64,000 bases of DNA, from the NCBI GenBank assembly GCA_049997795.1, contig JBEKVT010000001.1, positions 243,751 through 307,750 on the forward strand, in the 5' to 3' direction. Numbering within the stretch: position 1 is the stretch's first letter; each line of letters opens with the position of its first letter. Positions 13,424 through 62,951 of the stretch are shown one piece after another. A program made the position numbers and the translations under genes. The DNA comes from Minisyncoccia bacterium (GTDB lineage: Bacteria; Patescibacteriota; Minisyncoccia; Phycocordibacterales; PALSA-1337). The notes beneath the pieces were generated by a model, which had not been told where the DNA came from, did not search any database, and was given only the letters and a program-made list of their open reading frames with translations.

Positions 13424-15196
13424 ATGTTTTTCATGAAAGAACGATTGACCGAGAAGCTCAAGGCCGTCGCAGCGTCCGTCGGCATCAAGGAAGCCCTCGT
13501 AAGCCTCGAATACCCGACCGACCCGGCTCACGGCGATTTTTCCACGAATGTCGCTTTGGTCGGCGCCGACAAACTTAAGACCAGCCCGCGCGTTCTGGCG
13601 GAAAAGATCGTCGCTGAATTAAAAAAGGACGCACCCGATTTCATCGGTTCAATTGAGATCGCCGGTCCGGGCTTCGTCAACTTCAAGATCAAGGACAAAG
13701 CGCTCGCGGAAGCGGTTGTCGGGATCGCGGCCAACAAGGACGACCTCAAGGGGCCGAAGGCCGATCCCGCGAAAAAGGTGATGGTGGAGTACACTGACCC
13801 GAATCCGTTCAAGGTCTTCCATATCGGCCATCTCATGTCGAACGCCATCGGCGAATCACTGTCCCGGCTCATCGAACATTCCGGCGCGAAGGTCATCCGA
13901 GCGTGCTACCAAGGCGACGTCGGCCTGCATGTGGCCAAGACTATCTGGGGGATAAAATTCTTTCACCCAAACAATATAAAAGATTTCAACAGTCTGAAAA
14001 ATAAAGGCTCTCTTAATGACAGGATGCTCCTTTTAGGAAACGCTTATATAAAAGGCAGCGGGGCTTATGATGCTGCTGATTTATCAGGCTCGGTATCCGG
14101 CGGATCAGCAAAGTCAGATTTACAAAAAGAAATAGATTTAATCAACAAGAAGATTTTTGAAAAATCTGATTCAGAAATCAACGAAATCTACGAGACTGGC
14201 CGGAAATGGAGCTTGGAATATTTCGATTCCGTCTACGCGCGCCTCGGCACTAAGTTCGACAAGCTATTCTTTGAGAGCGAGGTCGGCAAGGCGGGCGTAA
14301 AGGCGGTGAACGAATTCCTCGGCAAGGGAGTCTTCGAGAAAAGCGAAGGCGCGATCGTCTTCAGGGGCGAGAATCATGGATTGCACACCAGAGTCTTCAT
14401 CACTTCGCATGGATTGCCGACCTACGAAGCCAAGGAGCTTGGTTTGAATGAGGAGAAGTTCAGGCTCTGTCCTGACTTGACTGAGTCGGTCATCGTCACC
14501 GGGAACGAGCAGGACGATTATTTCAGGGTGCTGCTCAAGGTATTGTCGTTGACTGCGCCGGAAATCGCGAAGAAGACCAGGCACCTGAGCCACGGCCTGA
14601 TGCGTTTTGCTTCAGGCAAGATGTCGTCGCGCAAAGGGAACATCATATCCGCCGAGTCGTTGATCGACGACATCAAAACCATGGTTTCTAAAAAAATGAT
14701 CGGCCGGGAATTCTCCGCTGCGGAAGCCGATAAAGTCGCCGATCAAGTGGCGATCGCCGCCATCAAATACACCATCCTGCGCCAGTCGATCGGCGGCGAT
14801 GTCATCTTCGATTCGGCCAAGTCGATCTCTTTCGAGGGCGACTCCGGGCCTTACCTCCAATATTCAGCTGTTCGCGCGCAGTCTGTCTTGAATAAGGCCG
14901 GGAAAGCCGCCGCCCCTCCCGCCCGGAAGCTTCCAGACAAAGTCGGACTGCTAGAAAGATTGATCGCCCGCTTCCCGGACGTCGCTCTGCGCGCCCGGAC
15001 CGAATACGCGCCGCAGCAGGTCGCCAGCTATCTGATCGAGCTGGCCGGGGCTTTCAACGGCTTTTACGCGCGCCAGGAGATCATCAACGAAAAAGACCCG
15101 CTCTCGTCTTATTATCTGGCGTTGACGCGGGCGTTCCTCACGACCATGACCGAGGGCCTAGGGCTCCTCGGCATCAAAGTCCCGGACAAGATGTAG
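13424..15196 (+). CDS. argS: arginyl-tRNA synthetase
   Basis: HIGH motif (FHIGHLMSNAIG), class I Rossmann fold and DALR anticodon-binding C-terminus (ends ...GIKVPDKM). Contains a low-GC patch at about 13960-14200. Confidence 0.9.
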   Translation: MFFMKERLTEKLKAVAASVGIKEALVSLEYPTDPAHGDFSTNVALVGADKLKTSPRVLAEKIVAELKKDAPDFIGSIEIAGPGFVNFKIKDKALAEAVVGIAANKDDLKGPKADPAKKVMVEYTDPNPFKVFHIGHLMSNAIGESLSRLIEHSGAKVIRACYQGDVGLHVAKTIWGIKFFHPNNIKDFNSLKNKGSLNDRMLLLGNAYIKGSGAYDAADLSGSVSGGSAKSDLQKEIDLINKKIFEKSDSEINEIYETGRKWSLEYFDSVYARLGTKFDKLFFESEVGKAGVKAVNEFLGKGVFEKSEGAIVFRGENHGLHTRVFITSHGLPTYEAKELGLNEEKFRLCPDLTESVIVTGNEQDDYFRVLLKVLSLTAPEIAKKTRHLSHGLMRFASGKMSSRKGNIISAESLIDDIKTMVSKKMIGREFSAAEADKVADQVAIAAIKYTILRQSIGGDVIFDSAKSISFEGDSGPYLQYSAVRAQSVLNKAGKAAAPPARKLPDKVGLLERLIARFPDVALRARTEYAPQQVASYLIELAGAFNGFYARQEIINEKDPLSSYYLALTRAFLTTMTEGLGLLGIKVPDKM

Positions 15197-15422: not shown

Positions 15423-18400
15423 ATGGCCGATTCACCTGATAGTCTGAAGAAATCCTCTCACGCCGAAAGGGAAGAGCGCATCCTGAAGTTCTGGAAAGAC
15501 AAGGATATCTTCAAGAAGAGCCTCGATAAAGAAGCGCCGAAAGGCGAGTTCGTTTTCTACGAGGGTCCGCCGACGGCCAACGGCCGCCCGGGCATCCATC
15601 ACCTCGAGGCCCGCGCCTTCAAAGACGTTATCCCGCGCTTCCGGACCATGCGCGGCTATCATGTGCGCAGAAAGGGCGGCTGGGACACTCACGGCCTGCC
15701 CGTCGAGCTGCAGGTTGAGAAGGATCTTGGTTTGAAGTCCAAGAAGGAGATCGAGAGCTACGGCATCGAGAAGTTCAACGACAAGTGCAAGGAGAGCGTC
15801 TGGACCTACGTGCGCGAGTGGGAGGATTTCACCAACCGCATGGGGTACTGGGTTGACCTCAAGGACCCATATATTACCTACAAGCCGGAGTACATGGAAT
15901 CGCTCTGGAACATAGTGAAGACCGTCGACAAGAAAGGCCTGCTCTACAAGGACTACAAAGTCGTGCCCTGGTGCCCACGATGTGGTACGGCACTGTCGTC
16001 TCATGAGTTAGCCCAAGGGTATGCGGATGTGAAGGATCTGGCGGTGACGGTGAAGTTCAAATTGAAAGCCGGCCAAAAGATCGGCGATTTTACGACCGAC
16101 GATAAGACTTACATCCTAGCTTGGACGACAACGCCATGGACCTTGCCGGGAAACGTCGGATTGGCGGTCGGTAAAAATATTATCTACAACAGGATTGAAT
16201 TAAATGGCGAACAGTTAATTGCTTCACATGACGCGATAGTTAGGTTGGATATGTTTAAAACCAATCCGAGTTATAAGGTAATTGAAAAAGGAATATCAGG
16301 ATTTAAATTGGTTGGTTTGGAATACGAACCCCTCTACCCGTTCTTAAAAGACAGTATCTCCGGTGCCGAGAAGGAAAAGCTACCGAACGCTTACAAGGTC
16401 TATCTGGCCGACTTCGTCACGACAGAAGACGGCACGGGCGTCGTGCACACGGCAGTCATGTACGGCCAGGACGACTTCGAACTAGGCGTGAAGGTCGGTC
16501 TGCCGAAATATCATCTGGTGAACGAAGACGGGACATTCAAGAAGGAAGCCGGCTTCCTGGCGGGGAAGTTCGTGAAAGACGAAGCGACCGACGTCGAGAT
16601 CATCAAGGACCTGGCACACCGCGGCCTCCTGTTCCACAAAGAGAAGCACGAGCACAGCTATCCTTTCTGCTGGCGATGCCAGACGCCGCTCATCTACTTC
16701 GCCCGCGATTCTTGGTATATCGGGATGTCGAGGCTGCGCGACAAGCTGGTCAAGGAGAACGAGAGCATCCATTGGGAGCCGGAACACATCAAGGAGGGCC
16801 GCTTCGGCGAATGGCTCCGCGAGGTCAAGGACTGGGCCTTTTCCCGCGAGCGCTATTGGGGCACACCTCTCCCCGTATGGGTCTGCGACAGGTGCGGCGC
16901 GAAGAAGGTGGCCGGCTCCGTCGCCGACGTCTCGAGGAAGCCCCGCAACACCTACTATGTCATGCGCCATGGCGAGGCCGGGAATAACGCCAAGGCAGTC
17001 CTGAATTATTCTGAGAGGGACCTGCATCCCCTGACGGAGAAAGGCCGTGGGCAGGTGAGGAAGTCGGCAGAGGGGCTGAAGGGCGCCGGAATAGACGCGA
17101 TATATTGCTCGCCGTTCATCCGCGCCAGGGAGACGGCGCAGCTCGCGGCCGAGGCCATAGGACTGAAGAAGGAAGATGTCAAGATCGAAGAACGCCTGCG
17201 CGAATTCAACATGGGGGATCTCGACGGGGAGCCGATCTCCAGGCTGACGACGGAATTCCCCGACGAAGTCAGGTTCGACAGGTGGCCGGAGGGAGGGGAG
17301 AGCTACGCCGACATCAAAAAGCGCATGGGGAGCTTCCTCTATGAGATGGAAGAGAAACATCAGGGCAAGACCATCCTCATCGTCTCTCACGAGACGCCGC
17401 TCTTCCTCTTAATATCCGCGGCCGAAGGCCTGGATCGCAAGCAGACTCTCGCCATGAAGCCGCAGCACCGCTTCATCAGTAACGCCGAAGTGCGCAAGCT
17501 CGAATTCACGCTCCTGCCGCACGACGCCGAATATGAGCTGGATCTCCACCGCCCTTATATAGACGAGGTAAGGCTTCCTTGTGCCTGCGGCGGAGAGATG
17601 AGGCGCGTCAAGGAAGTCATGGACGTCTGGTTCGATTCCGGGGCGATGCCTTTTGCTCAAGATCACTACCCATTCGAAGGCAAGAGAGGCGGACTTCTCG
17701 GCCGGTTCGGCGGTCAAAAGCTCGCCTACCCGGCTGATTTCATCTCCGAGGCCATCGATCAGACGCGCGGCTGGTTCTACACCTTGCATGCGGTGGGTGT
17801 CCTTATGGGCCGCGGCAAGGCCTTCAAGAACGTCATCTGCCTCGGTCTCATCCTCGACGCCGAAGGCAAGAAGATGTCCAAGTCCGTAGGCAACGTCATA
17901 GATCCAGCGGTCATGATGGACAGATACGGCGCGGATGCCCTGCGCTTCTGGATGTATTCGATCAATCAGCCGGGTGAATCCAAGAACTTCGAAGAGAAGA
18001 CCGTGGACGAGGTCGTCAAGAAGGTCTTCAACCTGATCTCCAATACGACGGTCTTCTACAAGATGTACGCAAAAGCCGACGTTGAACCGTCTTCGGACTC
18101 TGAAAACGTCCTTGATCGCTGGATCGTCGCGCGGCTGAATCAGTTAGTCGCTGATACCACGAAAAATCTGGATGATTACATTCTGTTGGAACCGGCGCGC
18201 GCCATCAGGGATTTCGCCGCAGACCTCTCGCAGTGGTATCTGCGCCGCTCGCGCGGACGATTCAAGGGAGAGGGAAGCGACAAACAAGCCGCACTGGCCA
18301 CGACCAAATACGTCCTACTCACCCTGGCTAAGGTAATGGCACCGTTCACGCCGTTCTTCGCGGAGGAGCTTTACCGGGATGTCGGCGGCGAGAAAGAGAG

Positions 18401-22873: not shown

Positions 22874-23380
22874 CTAACGATCCCCCTCTTCAGGAGGCGG
22901 TTCTTCGTCAGAGACGATCGAAGAAGCTTCTGTGAATGGATCGCGAGGCGATTCGTGGCCGCTGCTTGTTTTTACCAGCTCCACGAGGGAGTCGGCGCTT
23001 TTACGCAGGCCATCCAGAGAATCGAACGTATCTTTGTTGTCTTCTTGGCATCGGAAGCAGGGATTCCGTCCCTTGTAGTCTGGACGGCATTTCGCGATCT
23101 CTTTGCCGTAGATCTTCAGTCTGTCGCAATATTCACAAACACCGGAGTCGCGAAAGAAATACCTGAAGATCCTTTTATAGGCGATTAGCCCCATGACTAG
23201 CATCAAGCACCAAGTTACCGGTCTTCTCCAATCAACTGCCAAGGCCAATGGTATCCAGAAGCCGAAGATTATCAGCGCATTGTACGCCAACTTGCGGGCC
23301 TTTCTGGGATGCTTGAAGCGGTTTCCTATGCGTACAGCCAATCTGGCCAACAGATCCCATCTGTTTGGTTCATTTTTCAT
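22874..23380 (-). CDS. hypothetical membrane protein with a CxxC...CxxC zinc-ribbon-like motif
   Basis: Two TM helices, then CEYCDRLKIYGKEIAKCRPDYKGRNPCFRCQ; acidic C-terminus. Confidence 0.5.
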   Translation of the reverse strand: MKNEPNRWDLLARLAVRIGNRFKHPRKARKLAYNALIIFGFWIPLALAVDWRRPVTWCLMLVMGLIAYKRIFRYFFRDSGVCEYCDRLKIYGKEIAKCRPDYKGRNPCFRCQEDNKDTFDSLDGLRKSADSLVELVKTSSGHESPRDPFTEASSIVSDEEPPPEEGDR

Positions 23381-23451
23381 TTTATTAAAGAGCTGAGGGT
23401 TTAAAATCGATTGGATTATATCATGCGCAGATTCTCTGCTATAATTTTCAC

Positions 23452-24057
23452 ATGCACATAAAGAAGCTCAAGCATTGTTGCATGGTGATAGACGTAAATA
23501 AACGGCGCATCGTGACCGACCCAGGATTCTACTCTATCGAAGAACACGACAAGATCCAACATGCGGACATCGTGCTTATCACCCACGAGCACGCGGACCA
23601 TTTCCATGTCGAGTCGTTGAAGGCCATGATCAAAAGGATACCGGGCCTGTCGGTGATCGCGAACGACGCCGTCGGTGAGATTCTGGCCAAGGACGGCATC
23701 GAGCATCGCGTCATGAAGCATGGCGAGGCCATCGATCTGAAAGACGTACACATCGAAGCATACGGCAAGCACCACGCGCTGTTCCATAAGTCGATTCCGC
23801 CGGTATCGAATATCGGGTTCTTTATCGAGAACAAATTATTCTACCCTGGAGACGCTTTTACTGACCCGAAGAAGCCCGTCGATGTCCTAGCCCTGCCGGT
23901 AGCCGGCCCGTGGATGAAGATCTCGGAGGCTATCGATTACGCTCTGAAGTTAAAGCCGCGCCTGGCCTTCCCGGTGCACGATGCCATGCGCATACCGTCC
24001 CAGCATCTCCTTGCCGCTTCCCCCGTCAACGCCAATCTGTTACATTTGAAGCCATGA
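23452..24057 (+). CDS. MBL-fold metallo-hydrolase
   Basis: THEHADHF motif (HxHxDH) and later His/Asp ligands; 201 aa; its stop overlaps the next start (ATGA). Confidence 0.75.
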   Translation: MHIKKLKHCCMVIDVNKRRIVTDPGFYSIEEHDKIQHADIVLITHEHADHFHVESLKAMIKRIPGLSVIANDAVGEILAKDGIEHRVMKHGEAIDLKDVHIEAYGKHHALFHKSIPPVSNIGFFIENKLFYPGDAFTDPKKPVDVLALPVAGPWMKISEAIDYALKLKPRLAFPVHDAMRIPSQHLLAASPVNANLLHLKP

Positions 24058-26431: not shown

Positions 26432-27918
26432 AGAAAAAGCCTTTCTACATCACCACCACTCTGCCGTACGTGAACGCGGAGCCGCATATCGGCCATGCGA
26501 TGGAATTCATCCGCGCCGATATCATCGCCAGATCTAAGAAGCTCGCCGGTTTCGACGTGTTTTTCAATACCGGCGCCGATGAGCACGGCATAAAGATCTA
26601 TCAAAAAGCCAAGCAAGCCGGAATGGAGCCGCAAGCTCTTGTCGATCAGAACACGGCCAAGTTCAAAGAGATACTCCCGCTCCTCGGCATCATGTCGGAA
26701 GCAAATTTTGTCCGCACCACCGATCCGCACCACATAAGAGCGGCGCAAGAATTCTGGCGGATAGTGGACAAGAACGGTTTTATCTACAAAAAGGATTATT
26801 CGGTCAAGTACTGCGTCGGCTGCGAGCAAGAAAAGACCGAATCGGAGCTCGTGAACGGCCGTTGTTCCCTCCATCCATTGCAGGAGCTTGAGATCATCCA
26901 AGAGAAGAATTATTTCTTCAAGTTCAGTGCTTTTCAGACCAAGTTGCTAGAATTATACGCATCTCGTTCCGATTTCGTTGTGCCGGACTTCCGGTTCAAC
27001 GAGATAAAGGCCTTCGTCAGGCGCGGCCTGGAAGACTTCAGCATCTCACGATTGAAATCGAAGATGCCCTGGGGCATAGGAGTGCCCGGTGACCCGGAAC
27101 AGGTCATGTATGTCTGGTTCGATGCCCTGGTGAATTATATTTCCGCCGTCGGCTGGCCCGATGATGAGATTCAAGGCAAGAAAGAAGCCGGGTCATTCAA
27201 TAAATGGTGGGTTGAGACCGGCGGAGTGGTGCAATATTGCGGCAAGGATAATCTGCGCTATCAGAGCGCCATGTGGCAAGCCATGCTCCTGGCCGCCGGT
27301 TTGCCGCCGTCCAAGACCATCGTAATCAATGGCTGGATCACGGGCAAAGGCGGCGTCAAGATGTCGAAATCGCTCGGGAACGCCGTCGACCCGCTAGAGA
27401 TCGTCAAAGGATACGGCACCGACGCCCTGCGCTATTACGTCTCTCGCGAATTGAGCCCGTTCGAAGACAGCCCCTTTACCATGGAAAAATTCAAGGAGGC
27501 TTACAACGCCGGCCTGGCTAACGGTCTGGGGAATCTCGTATCCAGAGTGATGAAGATGGCGGCCGACAATTCCGTCTCCTATGAAGACTATGATGGCGTT
27601 GGGGAAGATACTAATATCGGAAAGAACTTCTATTCTTTCAGCCATGCTAGAAATTACGACAGCTTCAACATCAAGGAAGAAACTGATGATGTATGGAAAA
27701 CAATTGCCGCATTGGATGTGTTCATACAACGCGAACAACCGTTCAAGAAAATTAAATCAGATCCTGTGAGCGGCAAGAAGGACATAGCATATTTGCTTAG
27801 CCATCTTTTACGCATTGCAGTGAGACTTGAACCAATAATGCCTCAAACATCTTTGGCTATTCAAGACCTCGTCAAGAGGCGCCAGATGCCCACAGCTCCG
27901 CTTTTTGCTAGAAAATGA
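26428..27918 (+). CDS. metG: methionyl-tRNA synthetase
   Basis: HIGH (PHIGHAMEF), zinc knuckle CVGCEQE ... C, KMSKS (VKMSKSLGN). Low-GC patch in the C-terminal anticodon-binding region (about 27560-27900). Confidence 0.9.
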   Translation: MKKKPFYITTTLPYVNAEPHIGHAMEFIRADIIARSKKLAGFDVFFNTGADEHGIKIYQKAKQAGMEPQALVDQNTAKFKEILPLLGIMSEANFVRTTDPHHIRAAQEFWRIVDKNGFIYKKDYSVKYCVGCEQEKTESELVNGRCSLHPLQELEIIQEKNYFFKFSAFQTKLLELYASRSDFVVPDFRFNEIKAFVRRGLEDFSISRLKSKMPWGIGVPGDPEQVMYVWFDALVNYISAVGWPDDEIQGKKEAGSFNKWWVETGGVVQYCGKDNLRYQSAMWQAMLLAAGLPPSKTIVINGWITGKGGVKMSKSLGNAVDPLEIVKGYGTDALRYYVSRELSPFEDSPFTMEKFKEAYNAGLANGLGNLVSRVMKMAADNSVSYEDYDGVGEDTNIGKNFYSFSHARNYDSFNIKEETDDVWKTIAALDVFIQREQPFKKIKSDPVSGKKDIAYLLSHLLRIAVRLEPIMPQTSLAIQDLVKRRQMPTAPLFARK

Positions 27919-28172
27919 CAGTCTCCGAGTTTAGGAAGTTTCTTCACGGAGATTTGAACAAAAATTCACTGGAATTTGAGCCTTTTTTGAAGCGGATTTT
28001 AACCGCTTCGTGATACTTTAACGGGGCCTCTCCAAGCGCTCTTGCGCCGGGAGACGGCCCGTGTTAGTCTCGGTAGGCACTATCAATAATCGCAGTAAGT
28101 CCCCGGCCGCCACGGCGTGTCTGGCGAACGGGGTTCCCGAGGACATCCGAGGGATCACTGACTGCATCATCC

Positions 28173-45074: not shown

Positions 45075-45851
45075 TATAGGCACATCGGAATGATTACAAA
45101 CATTAATCGCCAACATACGCGGCCGTAGCCACACCCCTTTTAACTAGAGGCGTGATGCGGAGCCGCCCAATGAAGCGGTTTTTCGTTTTTACGGGACGAC
45201 TGAAGCTTGAAAATCTCATACCTCAAACAAGTATGTAAGGTCCGTCGGGCTCGGGTCGAGCCGGGCGGACAAAGCAATGTAGGTAATTAACACAAGCGGT
45301 TTTTAGAGTTCCCGACGGGAATTCTAAGGGCGTATGGTGGATGCCTTGGCTTCATGGAGGCGATGAAGGACGCGGCGTGGCGGCGATATGCTTCGGGGAG
45401 GTGCCGAGCAACCTTTGATCCGAAGATTTCCGAATGGGGAAACCCCGTGATGTGAACCATCATGACCTATGTAGTTACTCTATATAGGAGCGTACCCTGG
45501 GAAGTAAAACATTTCAGTACCAGGAGGAATAAAAACAAACTATGCATTCCGTCAGTAGCGGCGAGCGAACGCGGAGGAGACTAAACTCAACCTAAATCGT
45601 ACGGAGCCAGCCGAAAGGCTCGTGCCGTGCGATTTAGGTTGGGAGTTGCAAGGCGGAGACGTGCCGTTTATCGGCAGAGAAGTTACAAAATCTTTCGTTA
45701 GTCGAATCATCTGGAAAGATGAGCCCCAGCAGGTGACAGCCCTGTAGATGAAAATAAAAGATCTTCTTTGTTTCCGTTCTTAAGTACCCCGGGACACGAG
45801 AAGCTCGGGGGAATCCGCCGGAACTAACCGGCAAGTCTAAATACTCCAGAA

Positions 45852-45891
<40 letters not shown>

Positions 45892-46626
45892 CAGCCCGGA
45901 AGGGCGGTGAAATAGACCTGAAACCATATGCCTACAAGGAGTCGGAGCGGGCAGGACTTCGCGTCCGGAAAGTCGGAAGCGGGGCCCTGTCCGTCACGGC
46001 GTGCCTATTGAAGAATGAGCCAACGAGTTCAAGCAAGCAGCTCTGCTAAGGGCGAGAGCCCGGAGCAACAGGGAAACCGAGTCTGAATAGGGCGTTCGTT
46101 GTTTGCTTGAGACCCGAAGCCGGATGAGCTTGCCACGCGCAGGGTGAACCTTTCCGAAAGGAAAGGGGAAGCCCGAACCGGTGAGCCGTGCAAAACTCTC
46201 GGATGACGTGTGGTAAGGAGTGATAAGCTAATCGAATTCGGTAATAGCTGGTTCTCTCCGAAAGAACTTTTGGGTTCGCGTCGCGTTTACCCTTGCGGGG
46301 TAGAGCACTGGAAGATCTCGACAGGCCGAAAGGCCGCGAGACCTATCAAACTCCGAATACGCAAGGTCACTGCGCGGCAGTTAGACTGTGGGGGCTAAGC
46401 TCCATTGGTCAAAAGGGAAACAGCCCATGATCTCAATTTAAGGTCCCTAAATCGACGTTAAGTGCGCTTAAGGTGGTGATATCTCTCCGACAATGAGGAT
46501 GTAGGCTTAGAAGCAGCCATCATTCAAAAAAAGCGTAACAGCTTACTCATCGAGAGGTGTCGCGCCGCAGATAATCGGGGCTCAAACGTCGTACCGAAAC
46601 TGAGGGCTTGTGAACTTCATTGAGGA

Positions 46627-47073
46627 AAATTTTGTTCTTTTAGCCGGTTCCCGCGTAACTAGTCGGCATGGGCGTGCCCGCTGTCTCCCAAGTCAGCAAC
46701 GCTGATCGCTGAATAACGGGAACCGGTGTCGATTTCGCGTCGGAAGGCGGCTCGAATGCGTCGAGCGCTCGAAAGCGGTGGATTAACCTAATCCCAGGTA
46801 AGGAGCCTGGACTAGCTCACTATATCTCTGTGAACCACTGCTTTAAAGCATCGTTCGTTTTCGAGTCTGCCTTCCGACCGGATTTGGTGTCGGGGTGTGG
46901 CGTAGCCCGGTAGCGCGCTCGCTTTGTGGGGCAACAACGTATACCGTGTGTTAAGCACGGCGTGCTAGTGATGATGAGCCATAGATAGTAATCCCCATCT
47001 TGCGAGAAGTCGTCGGTTCAAATCCGACCACCCCGACCAAACTTTTTCTGGCATTTTTCAGGTAAAAATGCCT
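46627..47073 (+). other. intervening sequence (IVS) in 23S helix 45, closed by a 19-bp stem
   Basis: CTTGTGAACTTCATTGAGG (46608-46626) pairs with CCTCAATGAAGTTCGCAAG (47074-47092), one G-U. Flanking sequence aligns to E. coli 23S on either side of helix 45 (about nt 1170), the site of known Salmonella/Yersinia IVSs. Confidence 0.7.
46891..47039 (+). tRNA. tRNA-like element inside the 23S IVS, with a 72-nt insertion in the anticodon loop (possible anticodon UGU)
   Basis: Acceptor CGGGGTG/CACCCCG (7 Watson-Crick bp), U8, D-arm GCGT-AGCCCGGTA-GCGC (G18G19 present), anticodon stem CTCGC/GCGAG, 5-nt variable loop, T-arm GTCGG-TTCAAAT-CCGAC, discriminator A plus encoded CCA. Confidence 0.5.
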
Positions 47074-47786
47074 CCTCAATGAAGTTCGCAAGCGGTAGGA
47101 GAGTATTCGCATCGCCTTGAAGGTGAAGGGGTGACCCGCACTGGAGCGTTGCGAAGTAAGAATGTTGGCACAAGTAACCGCAATGCGGGCGAGAATCCCG
47201 CACGCCGAAAGACCAAGGTTTCCTTGGCAATGTATATCAGCCAAGGGTTAGTCGGTCCTAAGGGGATGGCGAACGCCGCACCCGATGGACACACGGTTAA
47301 TATTCCGTGACTTTCGCGAAGATCGATGGAGCGACGAGGGGCAGTATGCTGCGCGTATTATCGGATTTAACGTTCATGCTGTAAGGATGGGTCCCGGCAA
47401 ATCCGGATCCTGCTTTCGATGGCGAACCCGAGCGGAGTGAAAATGCCGCAAGGCAAATACAGCAAAGCGCCCCTTCAAGAAAAACTTCTAAGATCATCTT
47501 CGCGAGAACCGTACCGCAAACCGACACAGGTGGTCAGGTCGAGTAGACCAAGGCGAACGAGTGAGAGGTCTCCAAGGAACTCGGCAAAAAAGCAGCCGTA
47601 ACTTCGGAATAAGGCTTGCCCTTCGTTCAATCGAGGGGCCGCAGCTAAAGTATCTCTGGCAACTGTTTAACAAAAACACAGCTCCCTGCGAACTCGAAAG
47701 AGGATGTATAGGGGGTGACACTTGACCAATGCGAGAAGGTCAAATAACGACGGTGCGATCACATCAAGCTGATTGTTATAAGCCCT

Positions 47787-47826
<40 letters not shown>

Positions 47827-48452
47827 CAATTCCTTGTCGGGTAAGTTCCGACGCGTTGAATAGTGCAATGACTGGAGAACTGTCTCGGAGACTCGCTCGG
47901 TGAAAATACAATACCGGTGAAGATGCCGGTTACCTGCAGTTAGACGAAAAGACCCTAGAAGCTTTACTGTAACTTGATATTGACCATACGTGCTCCATGC
48001 GTAGCGTAGATGGGAGGATTTGAGGCGTTCCTTTCGGGGGGCGCTGATCCGTCGATGAAACACCATTCTTGGATTATGTATGTTCTAACCTCGGCGGCAT
48101 AAACGCCGGGAGACAGTATCTGGTGGACAGTTTTAGTGGGGCGCTATCCTCCTAAAAAGTAACGGAGGAGCCTATTAAGTTCAGCTAGGCGCGAATGGAA
48201 ACCGTGCCGATAGTGTATGGGCACAAGCTGGATTGACTGCGAGACGTACGTGTCGAGCAGATGCGAAAGCAGAGCCAAGTGAACCGACCGTGGGCGTTAG
48301 ACGCCGCGGAAGATTATCGGACAAAAGCTACTCTAGGGATAACAGGCTAGTTCCGCCTAAGAGTTCATATCGACGGCGGAGTTCGGCACCTCGATGTCGG
48401 CTCACCACATCCTGGGGGCGGAGAAGCTCCCAAAGGTTTGGCTGTTCGCCAA

Positions 48453-48496
<44 letters not shown>

Positions 48497-48826
48497 TGGT
48501 CTCCTATCTACTGCAGGCGTTGATGCTTGAGGGGAATTGACTCTAGTACGAGAGGACCGAGTTGAACGGACCGCTGGTCTACCTGCTGTCGTGCCAACGG
48601 CACCGCAGGGCAGCTATGTCCGGATCGGATAATCGCTGAAAGCATATAAGCGAGAAGCCGGCCCCAAGATGAGGCATCGTCAAGACCCGTGAGAGATGAT
48701 CACGTTGATAGGCGTTAGGTGTACGCGCCGCAAGGCGTTGAGCCGGGACGTACTAATCCGTCGATCTCGTCGGGAACCCTGAAAATCGCTGTGATAATCA
48801 CCACATTGCTATGATCAAACTTGTTT

Positions 48827-48979: not shown

Positions 48980-49090
48980 TTCTGGTGGTTCAGCGCTGTG
49001 GCACCACCCGTTCTCATTCCGAACACGGCAGTGAAACGCAGTTGCGGCGATGATAGTCCCATTGGGGCGAAAGTAGCTTGCCGCCAGAAC
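48980..49090 (+). rRNA. rrf: 5S ribosomal RNA
   Basis: TTCTGGTGGTTCAGC ... CCGAACACGGCAGTGAAACG ... CTTGCCGCCAGAAC; helix I pairing of the termini; conserved loop C/helix III. Confidence 0.8.
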
Positions 49091-56093: not shown

Positions 56094-56987
56094 ATGTGGA
56101 TAGTCAATAACAGAAAGATCTTCTATAGCATCTCCATCGCCTTGGTGGTCATCTCCATTCTGGCTCTCAGCGTCTGGAAGCTCGTTCCCTCGATCGACTT
56201 CACCGGCGGCACCCTGATCGACGTCTCATATTCGAGCGGCAATCCCGACCAATCGGCCGTAGCCAAGGCACTCTCGACCGTCGACCCGGCCGTTTCCGTC
56301 CGCCCGTCCGGCACCGGCGGATTCATCGTGCGCATGAAGGCCGTCGACCAGAATGAGAAAGCCGCCGTGGTGAGCGCCCTGTCCTTGAACAGCACCGCCT
56401 CCTCGACCATCGCCTCTTTCGATTCCGTCGGTCCGGTCCTTGGCCTCGAAGCCGTCAAGCGCTCCATAGTCTCGGTCCTCCTCGTCATCCTCGGCATCAT
56501 CATCTACATCACCTGGGCCTTCCGCAAGGTCTCCCAGCCGGTCTCTTCCTGGAAGTACGGCCTGGTGGCCGTCGTCTCGCTCGTCCACGATGTCATCATC
56601 CCCATGGGCGCCTTCTCCATCCTGGGGCACCTCTTCGGCTATGAAGTCGACACCCTCTTCGTCACGGCCGTCCTCGTCATCCTCGGCTTCTCCGTCCACA
56701 ACACCATCGTCGTCTTCGACCGCGTCCGCGAGAACCTTAGGACCTCCTCCGGCAAGAAGCCGTTCCTCGAGATCGTGGGGGAGAGCATCAGCCAGACCTT
56801 CACCCGCTCCATGAACACTTCCGCCACCGTCGTCCTGGCCCTCGTCGTCCTCTACATCCTCGGCGGCTCCGCCACCGCCCACTTCACCCTGGCCCTCATC
56901 ATCGGCATCGTGGCCGGCACCTTCTCGTCCGTCTTCATCGGCTCGCCGCTCCTCGTCACTATCGAGAGGTGGCAGGGGAAGAGATAG
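56094..56987 (+). CDS. secF: protein translocase subunit SecF
   Basis: SIDFTGGTLIDV and ...LGFSVHNTIVVFDRVRENL motifs; 297 aa. Confidence 0.9.
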   Translation: MWIVNNRKIFYSISIALVVISILALSVWKLVPSIDFTGGTLIDVSYSSGNPDQSAVAKALSTVDPAVSVRPSGTGGFIVRMKAVDQNEKAAVVSALSLNSTASSTIASFDSVGPVLGLEAVKRSIVSVLLVILGIIIYITWAFRKVSQPVSSWKYGLVAVVSLVHDVIIPMGAFSILGHLFGYEVDTLFVTAVLVILGFSVHNTIVVFDRVRENLRTSSGKKPFLEIVGESISQTFTRSMNTSATVVLALVVLYILGGSATAHFTLALIIGIVAGTFSSVFIGSPLLVTIERWQGKR

Positions 56988-57137
56988 TTCTAATTCTTGC
57001 TGTTCGAGTACAAGCCTATACTAGTAGCAACGTTGAAATCGGAACGTTTTTAGGTGTTTTTGCCAGCATCGACTATAGATTGTAGTTTAATACCACACTA
57101 GCAAAATAGTAAAACCTGAGTAACATAAAGATAATCA

Positions 57138-58946
57138 ATGGTTATTAGCAAACTCTACATTCAGAATTATCGTTGCTTTGGCGAGGAGCCCGCTGTTATT
57201 GATTTTGCAAAAACGAGCTTGATGGCATTTGTGGGTAGCAACAATGCCGGTAAGAGTACTGCATTAAGGGTAATAGAGATTTTACTTGGTGATAAATGGC
57301 CGTCGAGTCAGTTTTCAGAAGATGACTTTTACAAGAAAGACTTTGGGAGAAAAATTGTAATGGCATGTGAATTCTCAGAGAACATAGTTATTCCAGAATC
57401 ACGATCAGCAGGTGGACGTACAAAAAGCATTAAAGGTCTTATTATTGAAGTTGCATATCTATCTAGTGGGCATGGTCAAAATTCCACCGAGGTGGAATTT
57501 CATCTGATTGAAACAATAAATGACTTCAGTGTTGCTGATTGGCAGATTGCATGTTATGGAACATCCGATAAGAAAATATATGTATCACAAGAAATTAGAA
57601 ATCATCTCCCGATTGCTATCACTATCCCTTTGATCAAGCTCCAATCAGAGCAGCCATCGAACAAATGGAGTGTTATTGGTAAGATGCTTCAGAAAGTCGA
57701 AAATGCCTTTAGTAATGATCAATCAAAGAAAACACGATTTGAAAGAGGTATTAGAAGGGTAATGAGTATACTCCGTGAGCCAGCTGAATTTGCAACACTT
57801 GAAAGAGATGTAACTACGTTCTGGAACGAGGTAAAACCCAACAATCTTTCAGGGACTGCTCTGCAGTTTTTGGATTATGATCCATGGCATTATTATCGGC
57901 AATTCCATCTAGCTATTACAAAGAATAAAGAAGACGTTCCACTAGAAACACTAGGAGAAGGAATTCAGCGTTTGGCTATCATCTCTCTTTATCGCGCATA
58001 CTTGAAAGCGCATAGCCGAAATCAAAGAGCCATCCTTCTTATTGAAGAACCGGAGAGTTATCTACATCCTCAGGCTCGAAGTATTGTTTACAAGATACTT
58101 AGAAAAGCAGTGGAAGGAACAGATATTGAAGGTCAGATTATTTATACTACTCACTCATCAGATTTTCTGAGTTGTGAATTCTTTCAAGAAATTGTTGTAT
58201 TCACTGAAACTTCAGATGGGTCTATAACAAGACAGGTAAATAAACTGAGAATGCAGAGCCAAACTGCTGCTCTAACCGGAATCGACCCGGCTACGCAAAT
58301 TGACCCCATGATTTATTATAGGCTTACGGAAATTGATACCTATGGCTTAAAAGATGCACTGTTTTCCGGACTTGCAGTTATAGTCGAAGGTCCAACTGAT
58401 TTTGAATTTTTAAAGGCCTTTGGAGGAACTGAAGAAAAACAAACTTCAATTGTGATTGCTGCAGGTAAGGCTGTTATACCTGCAATATATTCATTTCTAA
58501 CAGCATTCGGTGTCAGAACTGCCGTCTGTATAGATCAGGATAATGCAAACCCCGGTGAATCGAACGCTACCCTTGCATCGTTGATAAACGAACGCAGGAT
58601 TAATAACCTTTCCTTACGTACACGAGTATTTACCGAAGCAGAAATCAACTCTGTTCCTGCCGGGTCACTAACTGTTTTCAGAAACTTACTAGTTTTCGCA
58701 AGAGATATTGAGAATGTTTTAGATTCCAGAATCCCGAATTATCATACACTTACTACTTCTCTAAAATCACGTCTAAATTTAGGCAACAGCAAACCAAAAC
58801 TCATGTTCGCTCTGAAACTGTGTGCCGAAGGAAGAATTCCTTCCCTGACTTTATCTACTGAACAAAGAGCAGCCTTAGAAACTCTTACTGCGGAAATCAA
58901 TACTTTTTTGAACCAACGGATTTTACAGCCCGTGCTTATAGTTTAA
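57138..58946 (+). CDS. OLD-family ATP-dependent endonuclease (N-terminal ABC-type ATPase + C-terminal Toprim), class 1 stand-alone architecture
   Basis: Walker A GSNNAGKST (aa 33-41), ABC signature-like LGEGIQRLAII, Walker B/H-loop ILLIEEPESYLHPQ, Toprim Glu in LAVIVEGPTDFEFL and DxD in CIDQDNANPGE; 602 aa (P2 Old is 586 aa). Confidence 0.8.
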   Translation: MVISKLYIQNYRCFGEEPAVIDFAKTSLMAFVGSNNAGKSTALRVIEILLGDKWPSSQFSEDDFYKKDFGRKIVMACEFSENIVIPESRSAGGRTKSIKGLIIEVAYLSSGHGQNSTEVEFHLIETINDFSVADWQIACYGTSDKKIYVSQEIRNHLPIAITIPLIKLQSEQPSNKWSVIGKMLQKVENAFSNDQSKKTRFERGIRRVMSILREPAEFATLERDVTTFWNEVKPNNLSGTALQFLDYDPWHYYRQFHLAITKNKEDVPLETLGEGIQRLAIISLYRAYLKAHSRNQRAILLIEEPESYLHPQARSIVYKILRKAVEGTDIEGQIIYTTHSSDFLSCEFFQEIVVFTETSDGSITRQVNKLRMQSQTAALTGIDPATQIDPMIYYRLTEIDTYGLKDALFSGLAVIVEGPTDFEFLKAFGGTEEKQTSIVIAAGKAVIPAIYSFLTAFGVRTAVCIDQDNANPGESNATLASLINERRINNLSLRTRVFTEAEINSVPAGSLTVFRNLLVFARDIENVLDSRIPNYHTLTTSLKSRLNLGNSKPKLMFALKLCAEGRIPSLTLSTEQRAALETLTAEINTFLNQRILQPVLIV

Positions 58947-59096
58947 TAAAGTGGCTGTCGATATTCTTCCAATTCTCGTTGCACGAGGGCTCACCCCCGT
59001 ACCAGACAGCCAGTCTGAATCAACGTAGTATCGAAGTTATGCCGAAGAGTTCCTAGACTTCGTTTATTGCAGATTAGTCCTGTATGACTAATCCCA

Positions 59097-59525
59097 TTAT
59101 TTAAATTTCTTCTTCCAGTCTATTCCAAAGGCGAGAAGCATAATGAGAAGGGCTACTGGAATTGAGACCATTAGCCACATTGAAATAAAAATTAATCCCA
59201 TCAATGTATATCCTTGCCATATCGGCACACTGCTTGCTTGGGTCGATGTGGCTATTGACGCAAGCGGAATCACATATGATCCGATTCCTATAAGTATCGT
59301 GTTATTTAGCCATTTTAAATGCCTCTCATCAATCTTGTCACCAAGAGCCGTGAAGAAAATGTAGTCGATGATATAAGCTGCTACAAGTATACATCCTGCC
59401 AGCTGCACACCAGAGAAAATAGTGAGAAAAAAGACTAGCATTATGACCACGAATTGTAGGCGGATCTCGATTTTGTTAGTCAATCTTTCTTTCATATCTT
59501 GCATGGCATAAGTATACATCATCAC
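59097..59525 (-). CDS. hypothetical 4-TM small membrane protein
   Basis: About 140 aa, four hydrophobic helices, AT-rich codon usage like its neighbours; convergent with the OLD gene. Start ambiguous (MMMYTYAMQDMKERL...). Confidence 0.5.
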   Translation of the reverse strand: MMMYTYAMQDMKERLTNKIEIRLQFVVIMLVFFLTIFSGVQLAGCILVAAYIIDYIFFTALGDKIDERHLKWLNNTILIGIGSYVIPLASIATSTQASSVPIWQGYTLMGLIFISMWLMVSIPVALLIMLLAFGIDWKKKFK

Positions 59526-59633
59526 AAATGATGTTTTTAATCTTGTAATTTCGATGTAGAATTAACTAGAGTCCTGAAATGTTACTTCGCTAGTTAAAAA
59601 GGTCCCAACGACACACCTCGCAGCTACAAGAAT

Positions 59634-60377
59634 ATGCAAAATGAAATAATCAATTCATTTAAAGAGGAGATAAAGAAAAGATTAACCACCTCTTTTTATG
59701 GCACATATATTATATTCTGGCTCATCTTTCATCATGAGTTTGTTCTCTCGTTATTCTTTGCAGATGGTGACAAAATATGGTCTACAACAGGACTTCTGAA
59801 GAGTCAGTATCTAAGCAAAGAATTTTTTAACTCCCAAGATTGGCACTCCTATTTGGGGTGGATGGTACCAATTATTTTGACCTGGCTATTTATTGAATAT
59901 TTCCAGAAGTACGTTGCTATTTACTTTTTTAGACTTGAACAGTTATATGATACTGAAAAGAAAATTATCCAAATTTCTGAACAAAGAAAAATAGAGGTTG
60001 CACAAAAGAGTCTTGAAAAAGCAAGTGTTGAAAAACTAGAAGTTGTAGAAAAGAAAACACAAAAAGAAAAACAAATACGATCCATTGACCCAACAATAGA
60101 GTGGCAAAAGGAACTCGAGTACATTTCTTCTAACCAGTCTGCATTGATGGCTATTAGGGACGCGGTTCTTATTATCTATAGAAGTGGTGGCGAATTCACA
60201 GGTGACGTTGGACTTTCAAATTCTATCGCTCAACCATACCTAAACCCAGATTCATTGTCACGCCTTGATACTATGGATATAGTCAGTATTTCTAAAGGAA
60301 TTTATGGCAATAAAATAGCATTTACCAGTAAAGGTAAGTATTTAGTGAGAAGACTACAAGAACAAGGAAAGGTTTAG
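59634..60377 (+). CDS. hypothetical membrane protein with two TM helices, Lys/Glu-rich coiled coil, and C-terminal winged-helix-like domain
   Basis: TSFYGTYIIFWLIFHHEFVLSLFF and LGWMVPIILTWLFIEYF helices; EQRKIEVAQKSLEKASVEKLEVVEKKTQKEKQIR coiled coil; C-terminal ...IAFTSKGKYLVRRLQE. Confidence 0.5.
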   Translation: MQNEIINSFKEEIKKRLTTSFYGTYIIFWLIFHHEFVLSLFFADGDKIWSTTGLLKSQYLSKEFFNSQDWHSYLGWMVPIILTWLFIEYFQKYVAIYFFRLEQLYDTEKKIIQISEQRKIEVAQKSLEKASVEKLEVVEKKTQKEKQIRSIDPTIEWQKELEYISSNQSALMAIRDAVLIIYRSGGEFTGDVGLSNSIAQPYLNPDSLSRLDTMDIVSISKGIYGNKIAFTSKGKYLVRRLQEQGKV

Positions 60378-60530
60378 GGATAACGATTACTTGCTTAAGT
60401 AGCAGTCCTAACTTCATCCTGCAAGTCCGGTAAAATTAATTCGTATTAAAGATCATTTAACGGTCTAAATCCGTCAAAAAGGTTCCAACATCGTCCGTGC
60501 CAGCCGATTTAAGACGCTTTCAGGCTCCCC

Positions 60531-60558
60531 TTGACTTCCTTTTTCCTTCAGGTAAACT
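60531..60558 (+). promoter_or_regulatory. candidate sigma70-type promoter for the 16S rRNA gene (TTGACT-16-TAAACT)
   Basis: TTGACT 60531-60536, TAAACT 60553-60558, about 250 nt upstream of the 16S 5' end. Confidence 0.4.
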
Positions 60559-60809
60559 AGCTCTTACCTCTCATAACAAGCAAAACGCCTTGTTACCCGA
60601 GGCGGAACTTTGAAAGTCACATAAAGAGAATGTATTAAGCTTCTTCGAGGTCCTGCTAACCCGGGACGACGAGGAAAGTGCAAGTACACATATATTCAAA
60701 CAATGATTACGATGGATTCCGTAGATTCAACGGATCCGACCGAGCAGAGGATGGCGAAATTAAGATAGACGGTTAGCGCCTTCTATTTTGTTCCGTTCGC
60801 TTATAGTTA

Positions 60810-62300
<1,491 letters not shown>

Positions 62301-62839: not shown

Positions 62840-62921
62840 GGGCACGTGGCGGAACTGGTATACGCGTACGCCTCAGAAGCGTATGGAGCAATCCTTGGGA
62901 GTTCGAGTCTCCCCGTGCCCA
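62840..62921 (+). tRNA. tRNA-Leu (anticodon CAG), type II with long variable arm
   Basis: Acceptor GGGCACG/CGTGCCC, 3-bp D-stem GCG/CGC, anticodon stem TACGC/GCGTA with loop CTCAGAA, 13-nt variable arm, T-arm GGGAG-TTCGAGT-CTCCC, discriminator A; CCA not encoded. Confidence 0.8.
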
Positions 62922-62951
62922 CAAGCGTTCGAGATGCTATCATAAGCCCCA

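Follow-up and report, generated by a model that had tools for sequence, protein, structure and literature searches.

A stand-alone Class-1-type OLD nuclease gene on a low-GC island between secF and the 16S rRNA gene of a Minisyncoccia bacterium

Here, we analysed a stretch of 64,000 nucleotides (hereafter the window) from the Minisyncoccia bacterium assembly GCA_049997795.1 (contig JBEKVT010000001.1, positions 243,751 to 307,750 of the forward strand) and focused on the interval between secF and the 16S rRNA gene. With a probability that we put at roughly 70%, this spot took up about 3.5 kb of low-GC foreign DNA whose main cargo is a stand-alone Class-1-type gene of the OLD family of ATPase/Toprim nucleases, and the two neighboring genes, which encode membrane proteins of 142 and 247 aa, are independent of it and not obligate partners. 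A previous sequence-only reading had proposed the three genes as one horizontally acquired defence module. Bacteria of the Candidate Phyla Radiation (CPR), or Patescibacteria, have very small genomes and reportedly few classical defence systems, and they are hard to culture. By analogy with characterized OLD enzymes, a clean, recently acquired island with an intact Class-1-type OLD gene would represent single-gene immunity gained at a variable spot beside an rRNA gene in a CPR bacterium. The island, its three genes and its native flanks are as follows (positions in the window).

56988-60526, no strand: AT-rich, horizontally acquired island filling the secF-16S interval (GC 0.380)
57138-58946, plus strand: OLD-family ABC-ATPase/Toprim nuclease of 602 aa, Class-1 type, stand-alone (Pfam, PADLOC and PDB matches)
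59097-59525, minus strand: 142-aa protein (140 aa from the ATG at 59519) with four predicted transmembrane (TM) segments (hydropathy), convergent with the OLD gene
59634-60377, plus strand: protein of 247 aa with a membrane anchor, a coiled coil and a C-terminal winged helix, from an uncharacterized family
56094-56987, plus strand: secF, native left flank (Pfam SecD_SecF_C; GC at third codon positions, GC3, 0.90)
60531-60558, plus strand: promoter-like TTGACT-16-TAAACT of the 16S gene, native, marking the right border (promoter scan; aligned and conserved in the related loci L071, L072 and L098)
60803-62297, plus strand: 16S rRNA gene, native right flank (Rfam SSU_rRNA_bacteria, 1351.9 bits)

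The composition of the island differs sharply from that of its surroundings. Its GC content is 0.380, compared to 0.572 ± 0.045 in 400-nt windows elsewhere (z = -4.3). The windowed GC is about 0.61-0.63 before the secF stop codon (56987), falls to 0.33-0.42 directly after it, and rises again at the 16S gene; no other low-GC run longer than 700 nt was found within the 64 kb. The same break is seen in GC3: the values are 0.85 for secD and 0.90 for secF vs. 0.30, 0.43 and 0.31 for the OLD, 142-aa and 247-aa genes, respectively (a difference of about 0.5). These calculations confirm the drop after secF and the recovery at the 16S gene that had been noticed from the sequence, and the three open reading frames (ORFs) reported there are intact. 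The left border of the island coincides with the secF stop codon, and the right border, at about 60526, is the point where the alignment to the 16S leader and promoter of the relatives starts. The three genes are oriented plus, minus, plus, with intergenic gaps of 108-150 nt; secDF lies upstream of the island, and the 16S gene, a tRNA-Leu gene and NifS/NifU genes lie downstream. Short low-GC runs also occur elsewhere in the window (27401-28100, 23101-23600, 13801-14400 and 16001-16500), each of at most 700 nt with a minimum GC of 0.41-0.44.

The interval was then compared with its counterparts in relatives. A SecF scan of metagenome contigs returned 47 related loci (33-86% identity), eight of which share with the window a 16S gene downstream of secF; two of the eight are near-duplicates, which leaves seven distinct arrangements, and the SecF proteins of the relatives compared are 54-82% identical to that of the window. 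The results show that synteny is kept while the gap between secF and the 16S gene varies from 0.28 to 6.9 kb (282, 353, 1013, 1878, 2803, 3824 and 6852 nt) and holds unrelated cargo. Some intervals contain no genes and others carry a diacylglycerol kinase with a large membrane protein at native GC, a low-GC pair of a cyclodipeptide-synthase-like (CDPS-like) gene and an ORF6N gene, UDP-glucose dehydrogenase with a TPR protein and ORF6N, or ABC-F with a pseudouridine synthase and a GIY-YIG gene. No homologue of the OLD, 142-aa or 247-aa protein was found in any of the seven arrangements, so the three genes are not conserved in synteny among the relatives. The island thus combines atypical composition with presence/absence variation among relatives, as expected of a genomic island, and the secF-16S interval is a variable insertion spot with turnover between lineages. 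Horizontal acquisition of the island, as the sequence-only reading had supposed, is well supported because the break in GC and GC3 and the variability of the interval are joined by a third line of evidence, namely that the closest OLD relatives reside in low-GC genomes of other phyla (see below). In two relatives, the gene nearest to the 16S promoter encodes an ORF6N-domain (KilA-N-like DNA-binding) protein (L072, 2721-3194; L076, 7688-8074), which hints at recurrent mobile-element traffic at this spot.

Since the composition switches abruptly and exactly at a gene boundary, we considered whether the island is an assembly chimera in which low-GC DNA of another organism was joined to a high-GC contig. 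In assemblies of different samples (JGI, ENA and Logan), the secF-island junction was found on 13 independent contigs, at least 7 of which span the whole island into the 16S gene, and the identity across the island is 100% wherever it is covered. As the island is identical in contigs from independent assemblies, a chimera can for practical purposes be dismissed. Every contig that crosses the 3′ end of secF runs on into the island, and no within-species presence/absence polymorphism was found among them. The island is fixed in the window's own Minisyncoccia population, and variation is seen only between lineages.

The OLD protein, whose database record (on a 657-kb contig) is named AAA family ATPase, has an ABC-type ATPase at the N-terminus and, at the C-terminus, a Toprim domain with the catalytic glutamate and the metal-binding DxD motif. 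Among the Pfam families, it matches AAA_15 with 6e-39 and OLD-like_TOPRIM with 1.5e-6, which passes the Pfam cut-off. Of the PADLOC models, the P2-type 'Old' scores best (7e-38, residues 2-479), followed by AriA (3e-37, ATPase half only) and the GajA models (1.5e-27 and weaker), and the sole PDB relative by sequence is 6P74, the Class 1 OLD of Thermus scotoductus (TsOLD; 4.5e-25). Motif conservation was assessed in an alignment of 25 sequences that includes distant relatives at 23-27% identity. In the ATPase, the Walker A motif (G33-S40, with G33, K39 and S40), the signature (G273, G275 and Q277), the EEPE motif at 303-306 (including E303 and E304) with H310, and the TTHS motif at 337-340 (including H339) are invariant or nearly so. 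In the Toprim domain, no variation is seen at E417, K444, D466 and E525, and the conservation of D468 is 90% or more. Every motif that had been named from the sequence (Walker A, signature, Walker B/H-loop, Toprim glutamate and DxD) is therefore conserved on proper alignment, the catalytic Toprim residues included. Since all catalytic residues are conserved, the enzyme looks catalytically competent.

We next asked which class of OLD systems the gene resembles. No UvrD-like helicase gene was found in the flanks read, about 8 kb to the left and about 7 kb to the right of the OLD gene, which agrees with the earlier statement that a GajB partner is absent. No known defence gene was found near the OLD gene in the window (PADLOC and flank reading), and Rfam gave no retron or other noncoding RNA beside it. 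In Gabija (Class 2), the homologous ATPase-Toprim protein GajA is paired with the UvrD-like GajB; the window lacks such a helicase gene and the GajA profiles score below the 'Old' profile. In PARIS (Class 4), the ATPase AriA is homologous to the ATPase half of the OLD protein, but the Toprim domain resides on the separate protein AriB (DUF4435), whereas in the window it is fused to the ATPase in one ORF of 602 aa. The retron systems of Class 3 include a reverse transcriptase and a noncoding RNA, neither of which is present in the window, and the model for the retron Eco8 effector matched the OLD protein with 19.7 bits against a cut-off of 250. The gene thus has the stand-alone features of Class 1, with no helicase, no reverse transcriptase or noncoding RNA, a fused Toprim domain and no conserved partner. 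Among the handful of sequences compared from Dataset EV1 (PMC12796447), the best matches are 'Class 1' sequences, including Patescibacteria entries, with up to 116 bits; the U5 entry scored 14.5 bits, but it is a fragment of about 170 aa and does not stand on equal terms with the 116-bit Class 1 score. By the context definition, the OLD gene is assigned to Class 1, and its best matches among the profiles and the few sequences compared are of this type as well.

The characterized Class 1 enzymes (P2 Old, TsOLD, Vc OLD and YbjD) are likewise stand-alone genes with variable neighborhoods and gave the best profile and PDB matches; in contrast, the OLD protein of the window is only about 25% identical to them and is encoded by a CPR bacterium. 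About 60 database proteins are 41-60% identical to it, after which identity drops sharply to 27%, and by this measure these relatives form a distinct subfamily. Those members that are named or could be located belong to Saccharibacteria, Thermodesulfovibrionia, Cloacimonadota, Nitrospinota and Altiarchaeota. The GC content of the five readable subfamily loci is 30-39%, matching the composition of the island, and therefore a low-GC donor pool for the island is indicated. OLD genes in CPR bacteria are already in published datasets; what is added here is a distinct cross-phylum subfamily of a known kind, often embedded in restriction-modification (RM) loci, and no new kind of defence system.

The neighborhoods of the subfamily bear on the function of the enzyme. 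Four of the five close homologues with readable flanks adjoin RM or AIPR genes. One lies beside a type III RM pair (N6_N4 methylase and ResIII), one beside an Eco57I/MmeI-type IIG enzyme whose stop codon directly adjoins the start of OLD, one beside the type I genes HsdS and HsdR, and one has AIPR and DUF6119 upstream and a trypsin-like protease downstream. The nearest homologue on a long contig has a metallo-beta-lactamase-fold neighbor instead, and the neighbors of OLD vary across every homologous locus. Since four of these five homologues adjoin RM or AIPR genes, a defence role of the window's OLD protein is plausible by analogy. OLD genes were repeatedly observed within or at the ends of RM operons (L017, 194-6804; L018, 4558-9836; L019, 6-5475; L123, 1-6425), the systems being type III, IIG, type I with the OLD gene overlapping hsdS and, in L123, a P2-type OLD gene between hsdS and hsdR. 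Such RM-embedded genes are at odds with the textbook picture of Class 1 OLD as isolated genes.

Several Class 1 enzymes have been studied experimentally. Vc OLD of Vibrio cholerae alone blocks phage genome replication, for which both active sites are needed, and it nicks DNA in vitro (PMC12392090). P2 Old, activated by ATP hydrolysis, cleaves tRNA anticodon stems (PMC12445682), and Escherichia coli YbjD gives anti-phage phenotypes upon induction (PMC13261556). These three cases show that Class 1 OLDs can defend alone. For TsOLD, a dimer with two-metal catalysis by the Toprim domain has been described (PMC10568477). By analogy with these enzymes, the OLD protein of the window would form a dimeric ABC ATPase in which the two-metal Toprim nuclease is licensed, through binding and hydrolysis of ATP, to cleave nucleic acid when a phage infects. 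It may act on phage or host DNA by nicking, as for Vc OLD, or on tRNA anticodon stems, as for P2 Old, and either cut would stop phage replication. The two membrane-protein genes would be accessory genes located on the same island but independent of OLD. The role against phages is proposed here from the characterized relatives, as are trigger and substrate.

We also considered whether the OLD homologue has a housekeeping, non-defence role similar to that of Cran1, the 'class 5' OLD of Sulfolobales, which acts in the cell cycle and chromatin. Cran1 shows that OLD-family enzymes can be non-antiviral (PMC12796447), and the fixation of the island in its population would fit such a role. The Cran1 gene also lies beside a gene for a small membrane protein (SiRe_0087), as the OLD gene of the window does, and this conserved partner makes the earlier claim that no OLD nuclease paired with a membrane protein had been described outdated. 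In contrast to the window's gene, Cran1 is essential and vertically inherited together with its partner (PMC12796447), whereas the OLD gene of the window has foreign composition, is missing from the corresponding interval of every related lineage compared and is patchy across phyla, its neighbors are not conserved, and its relatives have RM or abortive-infection neighbors. Because the gene is foreign and patchy with RM-associated relatives while Cran1 is vertically inherited, a Cran1-like role is highly improbable.

To determine whether the three genes form one system, OLD-family loci were screened with profiles of the 142- and 247-aa proteins. The screen covered 7 loci of the close subfamily and 43 distant ones, with flanks mostly of up to 8 kb; one of the 7 close loci (L009) is a 2-kb fragment with almost no flank. 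No homologue of either protein was found in these 50 loci. In tblastx comparisons, similarity between the island and other loci never extended beyond a single gene. If the three genes were one new defence system, the OLD protein would sense or cut phage nucleic acid and the membrane proteins would serve as anchors or as effectors of abortive infection. In favor of this, the three genes lie side by side and have a low GC content in common, the 142-aa protein has a weak KwaA-like match (E 0.017), and Cran1 with its conserved membrane-protein partner provides a precedent (PMC12796447). However, the trio was found nowhere else, the fetched OLD-family loci hold neither partner, the loci of the 142-aa family lack OLD, and the orientations and gaps of the three genes are not those of an operon. 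The idea that the OLD gene and the two membrane-protein genes form one module, as the sequence-only reading had it, is not supported, and we consider a three-gene system very unlikely.

The 142-aa protein has hydropathy peaks at residues 25-43, 43-61, 76-94 and 111-130, in agreement with the four TM segments first proposed for it. It has no Pfam, NCBIfam or significant PHROG match. A KwaA-like identity was tried and rejected: like KwaA of the Kiwa system (KwaA and KwaB), the protein has four TM segments, but the PADLOC match is marginal and not significant, no KwaB (DUF4868) gene is present, and its homologues reside in a recombinase/FtsK element. The database matches consist of the exact protein and three homologues at 52-61% identity, and none of the three homologues has an OLD gene nearby. 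Two of the three belong to a conserved block with an FtsK/SpoIIIE-type ATPase, and the third adjoins an SMC-like ATPase of 930 aa. In longer contigs, the FtsK block adjoins genes for a serine recombinase, an NrS1-1-type primase-polymerase, an SDH protease and a reverse transcriptase, and these neighbors therefore mark it as part of a mobile element. Remnants of this element around the 142-aa gene of the window were also looked for and rejected, as tblastx similarity ends at the ends of the gene.

In L010-L012 and L015 (e.g., L011, 1-11272), the homologue of the 142-aa protein comes last in this conserved block, whose order is 323, 181 and 128 aa, the FtsK/SpoIIIE ATPase, and then 133 and 136 aa. 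The genes flanking the block encode a large serine recombinase, a primase-polymerase similar to NrS1-1, an SDH/NfeD protease and a reverse transcriptase; with a GC content of about 36%, the locus looks like an integrative mobile element.

The 247-aa protein at first appeared to be an ORFan, since a word-indexed search returned only the protein itself; an exhaustive HMMER search rejected this with 260 cluster representatives at E ≤ 1e-3 (14 at ≤ 1e-30), nearly all of 235-265 aa. Conserved motifs of this family of at least 260 clusters include GLLKxxYL, which follows the first hydrophobic helix, and the C-terminal LTEKGKYF. A single-sequence AF2 model had a predicted local distance difference test score (pLDDT) of 59.8 and was unusable; it was replaced by an AlphaFold model based on the family alignment, with a pLDDT of 94.9. 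In this model, two N-terminal hydrophobic helices coincide with the hydropathy peaks at 25-43 and 72-90, and a continuous helix spans residues 70-151. Model and hydropathy together bear out the description given from the sequence, namely two TM helices, a coiled coil and a winged-helix C-terminus. From the distribution of lysine and arginine, we infer an N-in/C-in topology with a cytoplasmic winged helix. The family has no Pfam, PADLOC or NCBIfam match, and a phage or plasmid origin was rejected because no match was found in viral contigs, phage records or plasmids. As a by-product, the analysis thus exposes an uncharacterized membrane-anchored winged-helix family with a confident structure model.

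Five further independent contexts of the 247-aa family were read (L120, 3848-4642; L123, 7001-7726; L119, L121 and L122). Two family members lie beside ATP synthase operons and another lies between a tRNA synthetase gene and a DUF2207 gene. A fourth is part of a type I RM operon whose genes run HsdM, 158 aa, HsdS, family member, 247 aa, HTH/SocA_Panacea, 126 aa and HsdR. The fifth, in L123, directly follows downstream of another type I RM operon, in which a P2-type OLD gene (PADLOC 1e-60) lies between hsdS and hsdR. One of these two RM loci thus also holds a gene with a SocA/Panacea antitoxin domain.

These contexts raise the question of whether the OLD protein and the 247-aa protein are functionally linked, with the winged-helix protein tethering or presenting DNA at the membrane or regulating OLD and the 142-aa gene being a passenger. 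An OLD gene lies within 4 kb in two of the six independent contexts of the 247-aa family (the window and L123), compared to none of 53 control loci (415 kb), and the two members inside or next to type I RM operons indicate that the family tends to live in defence loci. However, when the discovery case is left out, the counts are 1 of 5 vs. 0 of 53 (Fisher's exact test, calculated by hand, p about 0.09). Moreover, the OLD proteins of the window and L123 (E 3e-11 to each other) fall into different subfamilies, L123 has hsdR and a 143-aa gene between its OLD gene and the family member, the other three family members reside among housekeeping genes, and the reverse test, from the fetched OLD-family loci outward, gave no family member. 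We therefore regard a functional link as unlikely, and the co-location is read as shared residence in defence and accessory islands. It is still more doubtful that the 247-aa proteins, as a new and widespread family, bind DNA through a membrane-tethered winged helix, act in defence loci and possibly cooperate with OLD-type nucleases; if true, the OLD gene and the 247-aa gene of the window would form a further context-defined class of OLD.

Several observations weigh against a lone Class-1-type OLD gene for defence with two independent neighbors. The three genes of the island are similarly low in GC and may have arrived together, and in L123 about 3.5 kb separate an OLD-family gene from a 247-family gene within a single type I RM island. 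Among the OLD clades, at least that of Cran1 is not antiviral (PMC12796447). In addition, a 2023 review describes Class 1 OLD genes as not proximal to other defence genes (PMC10568477), which is true in the window, but the subfamily is often adjacent to RM genes. The Class 1 assignment is also tempered by an extra segment, about 20-30 residues long, that lies between DxD and E525 in the subfamily and sets it apart from the characterized members.

Repeats at the edges of the island had been proposed as integration scars. Two direct copies of a 14-nt repeat are exact:

59596-59609, plus strand: AAAAAGGTCCCAAC, first copy of the 14-nt direct repeat, in the divergent intergenic region (exact match)
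60476-60489, plus strand: AAAAAGGTTCCAAC, the other copy of the 14-nt direct repeat, located about 40 nt inside the island's right edge (exact match)

The supposed inverted copy at the left edge (57038-57051) matches the 14-mer at only 11 of 14 positions, so of the repeats first described the two direct copies stand and the inverted one has three mismatches. The second direct copy overlaps a terminator-like hairpin on the minus strand. In the window, 11 matches to the 14-mer with three mismatches were found vs. 7.7 ± 2.6 expected, and within the island, 2 pairs of 14-mers with at most one mismatch were observed vs. 1.7 ± 1.4 in simulated sequence. Since these frequencies are at the level of chance, the repeats were rejected as integration scars. 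A 17-nt pair (D3, at 57119 and 60615, 15 of 17 positions matching) that brackets all three genes was rejected as well, as it is one of seven similar families at chance level; its right copy falls in the native, conserved 16S leader. No integrase ORF was found in the island (ORF list and Pfam), and the mobility signatures looked for (integrase, att repeats and a tRNA target) are absent from it.

The rRNA genes of the window are unlinked and in an unusual order, all on the plus strand: the 23S gene (45311-48776) and the 5S gene (48981-49089) are followed by about 11.7 kb of protein genes and then by the 16S gene (60803-62297). After the 16S gene come tRNA-Leu(CAG) (62840-62922) and a cysteine desulfurase/NifU cluster. 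The 23S gene spans 3466 nt vs. 2925 nt for the model, which indicates several hundred nucleotides of insertions. Inside it, Rfam reports a tRNA at 46891-47036 on the plus strand (51.7 bits) with all four stems paired and a 75-nt insertion in the anticodon loop; the alignment to the 23S model (model positions about 600-1200) is largely missing around it, and ARAGORN made no call there. This could be an intron-bearing tRNA inside an intervening sequence or within a fragmented 23S gene. The 16S genes of two related CPR lineages also carry insertions relative to that of the window, about 265 nt between positions 63 and 88 in L095 (4208-4499) and about 76 nt near positions 1110-1130 in L076 (10446-10542).

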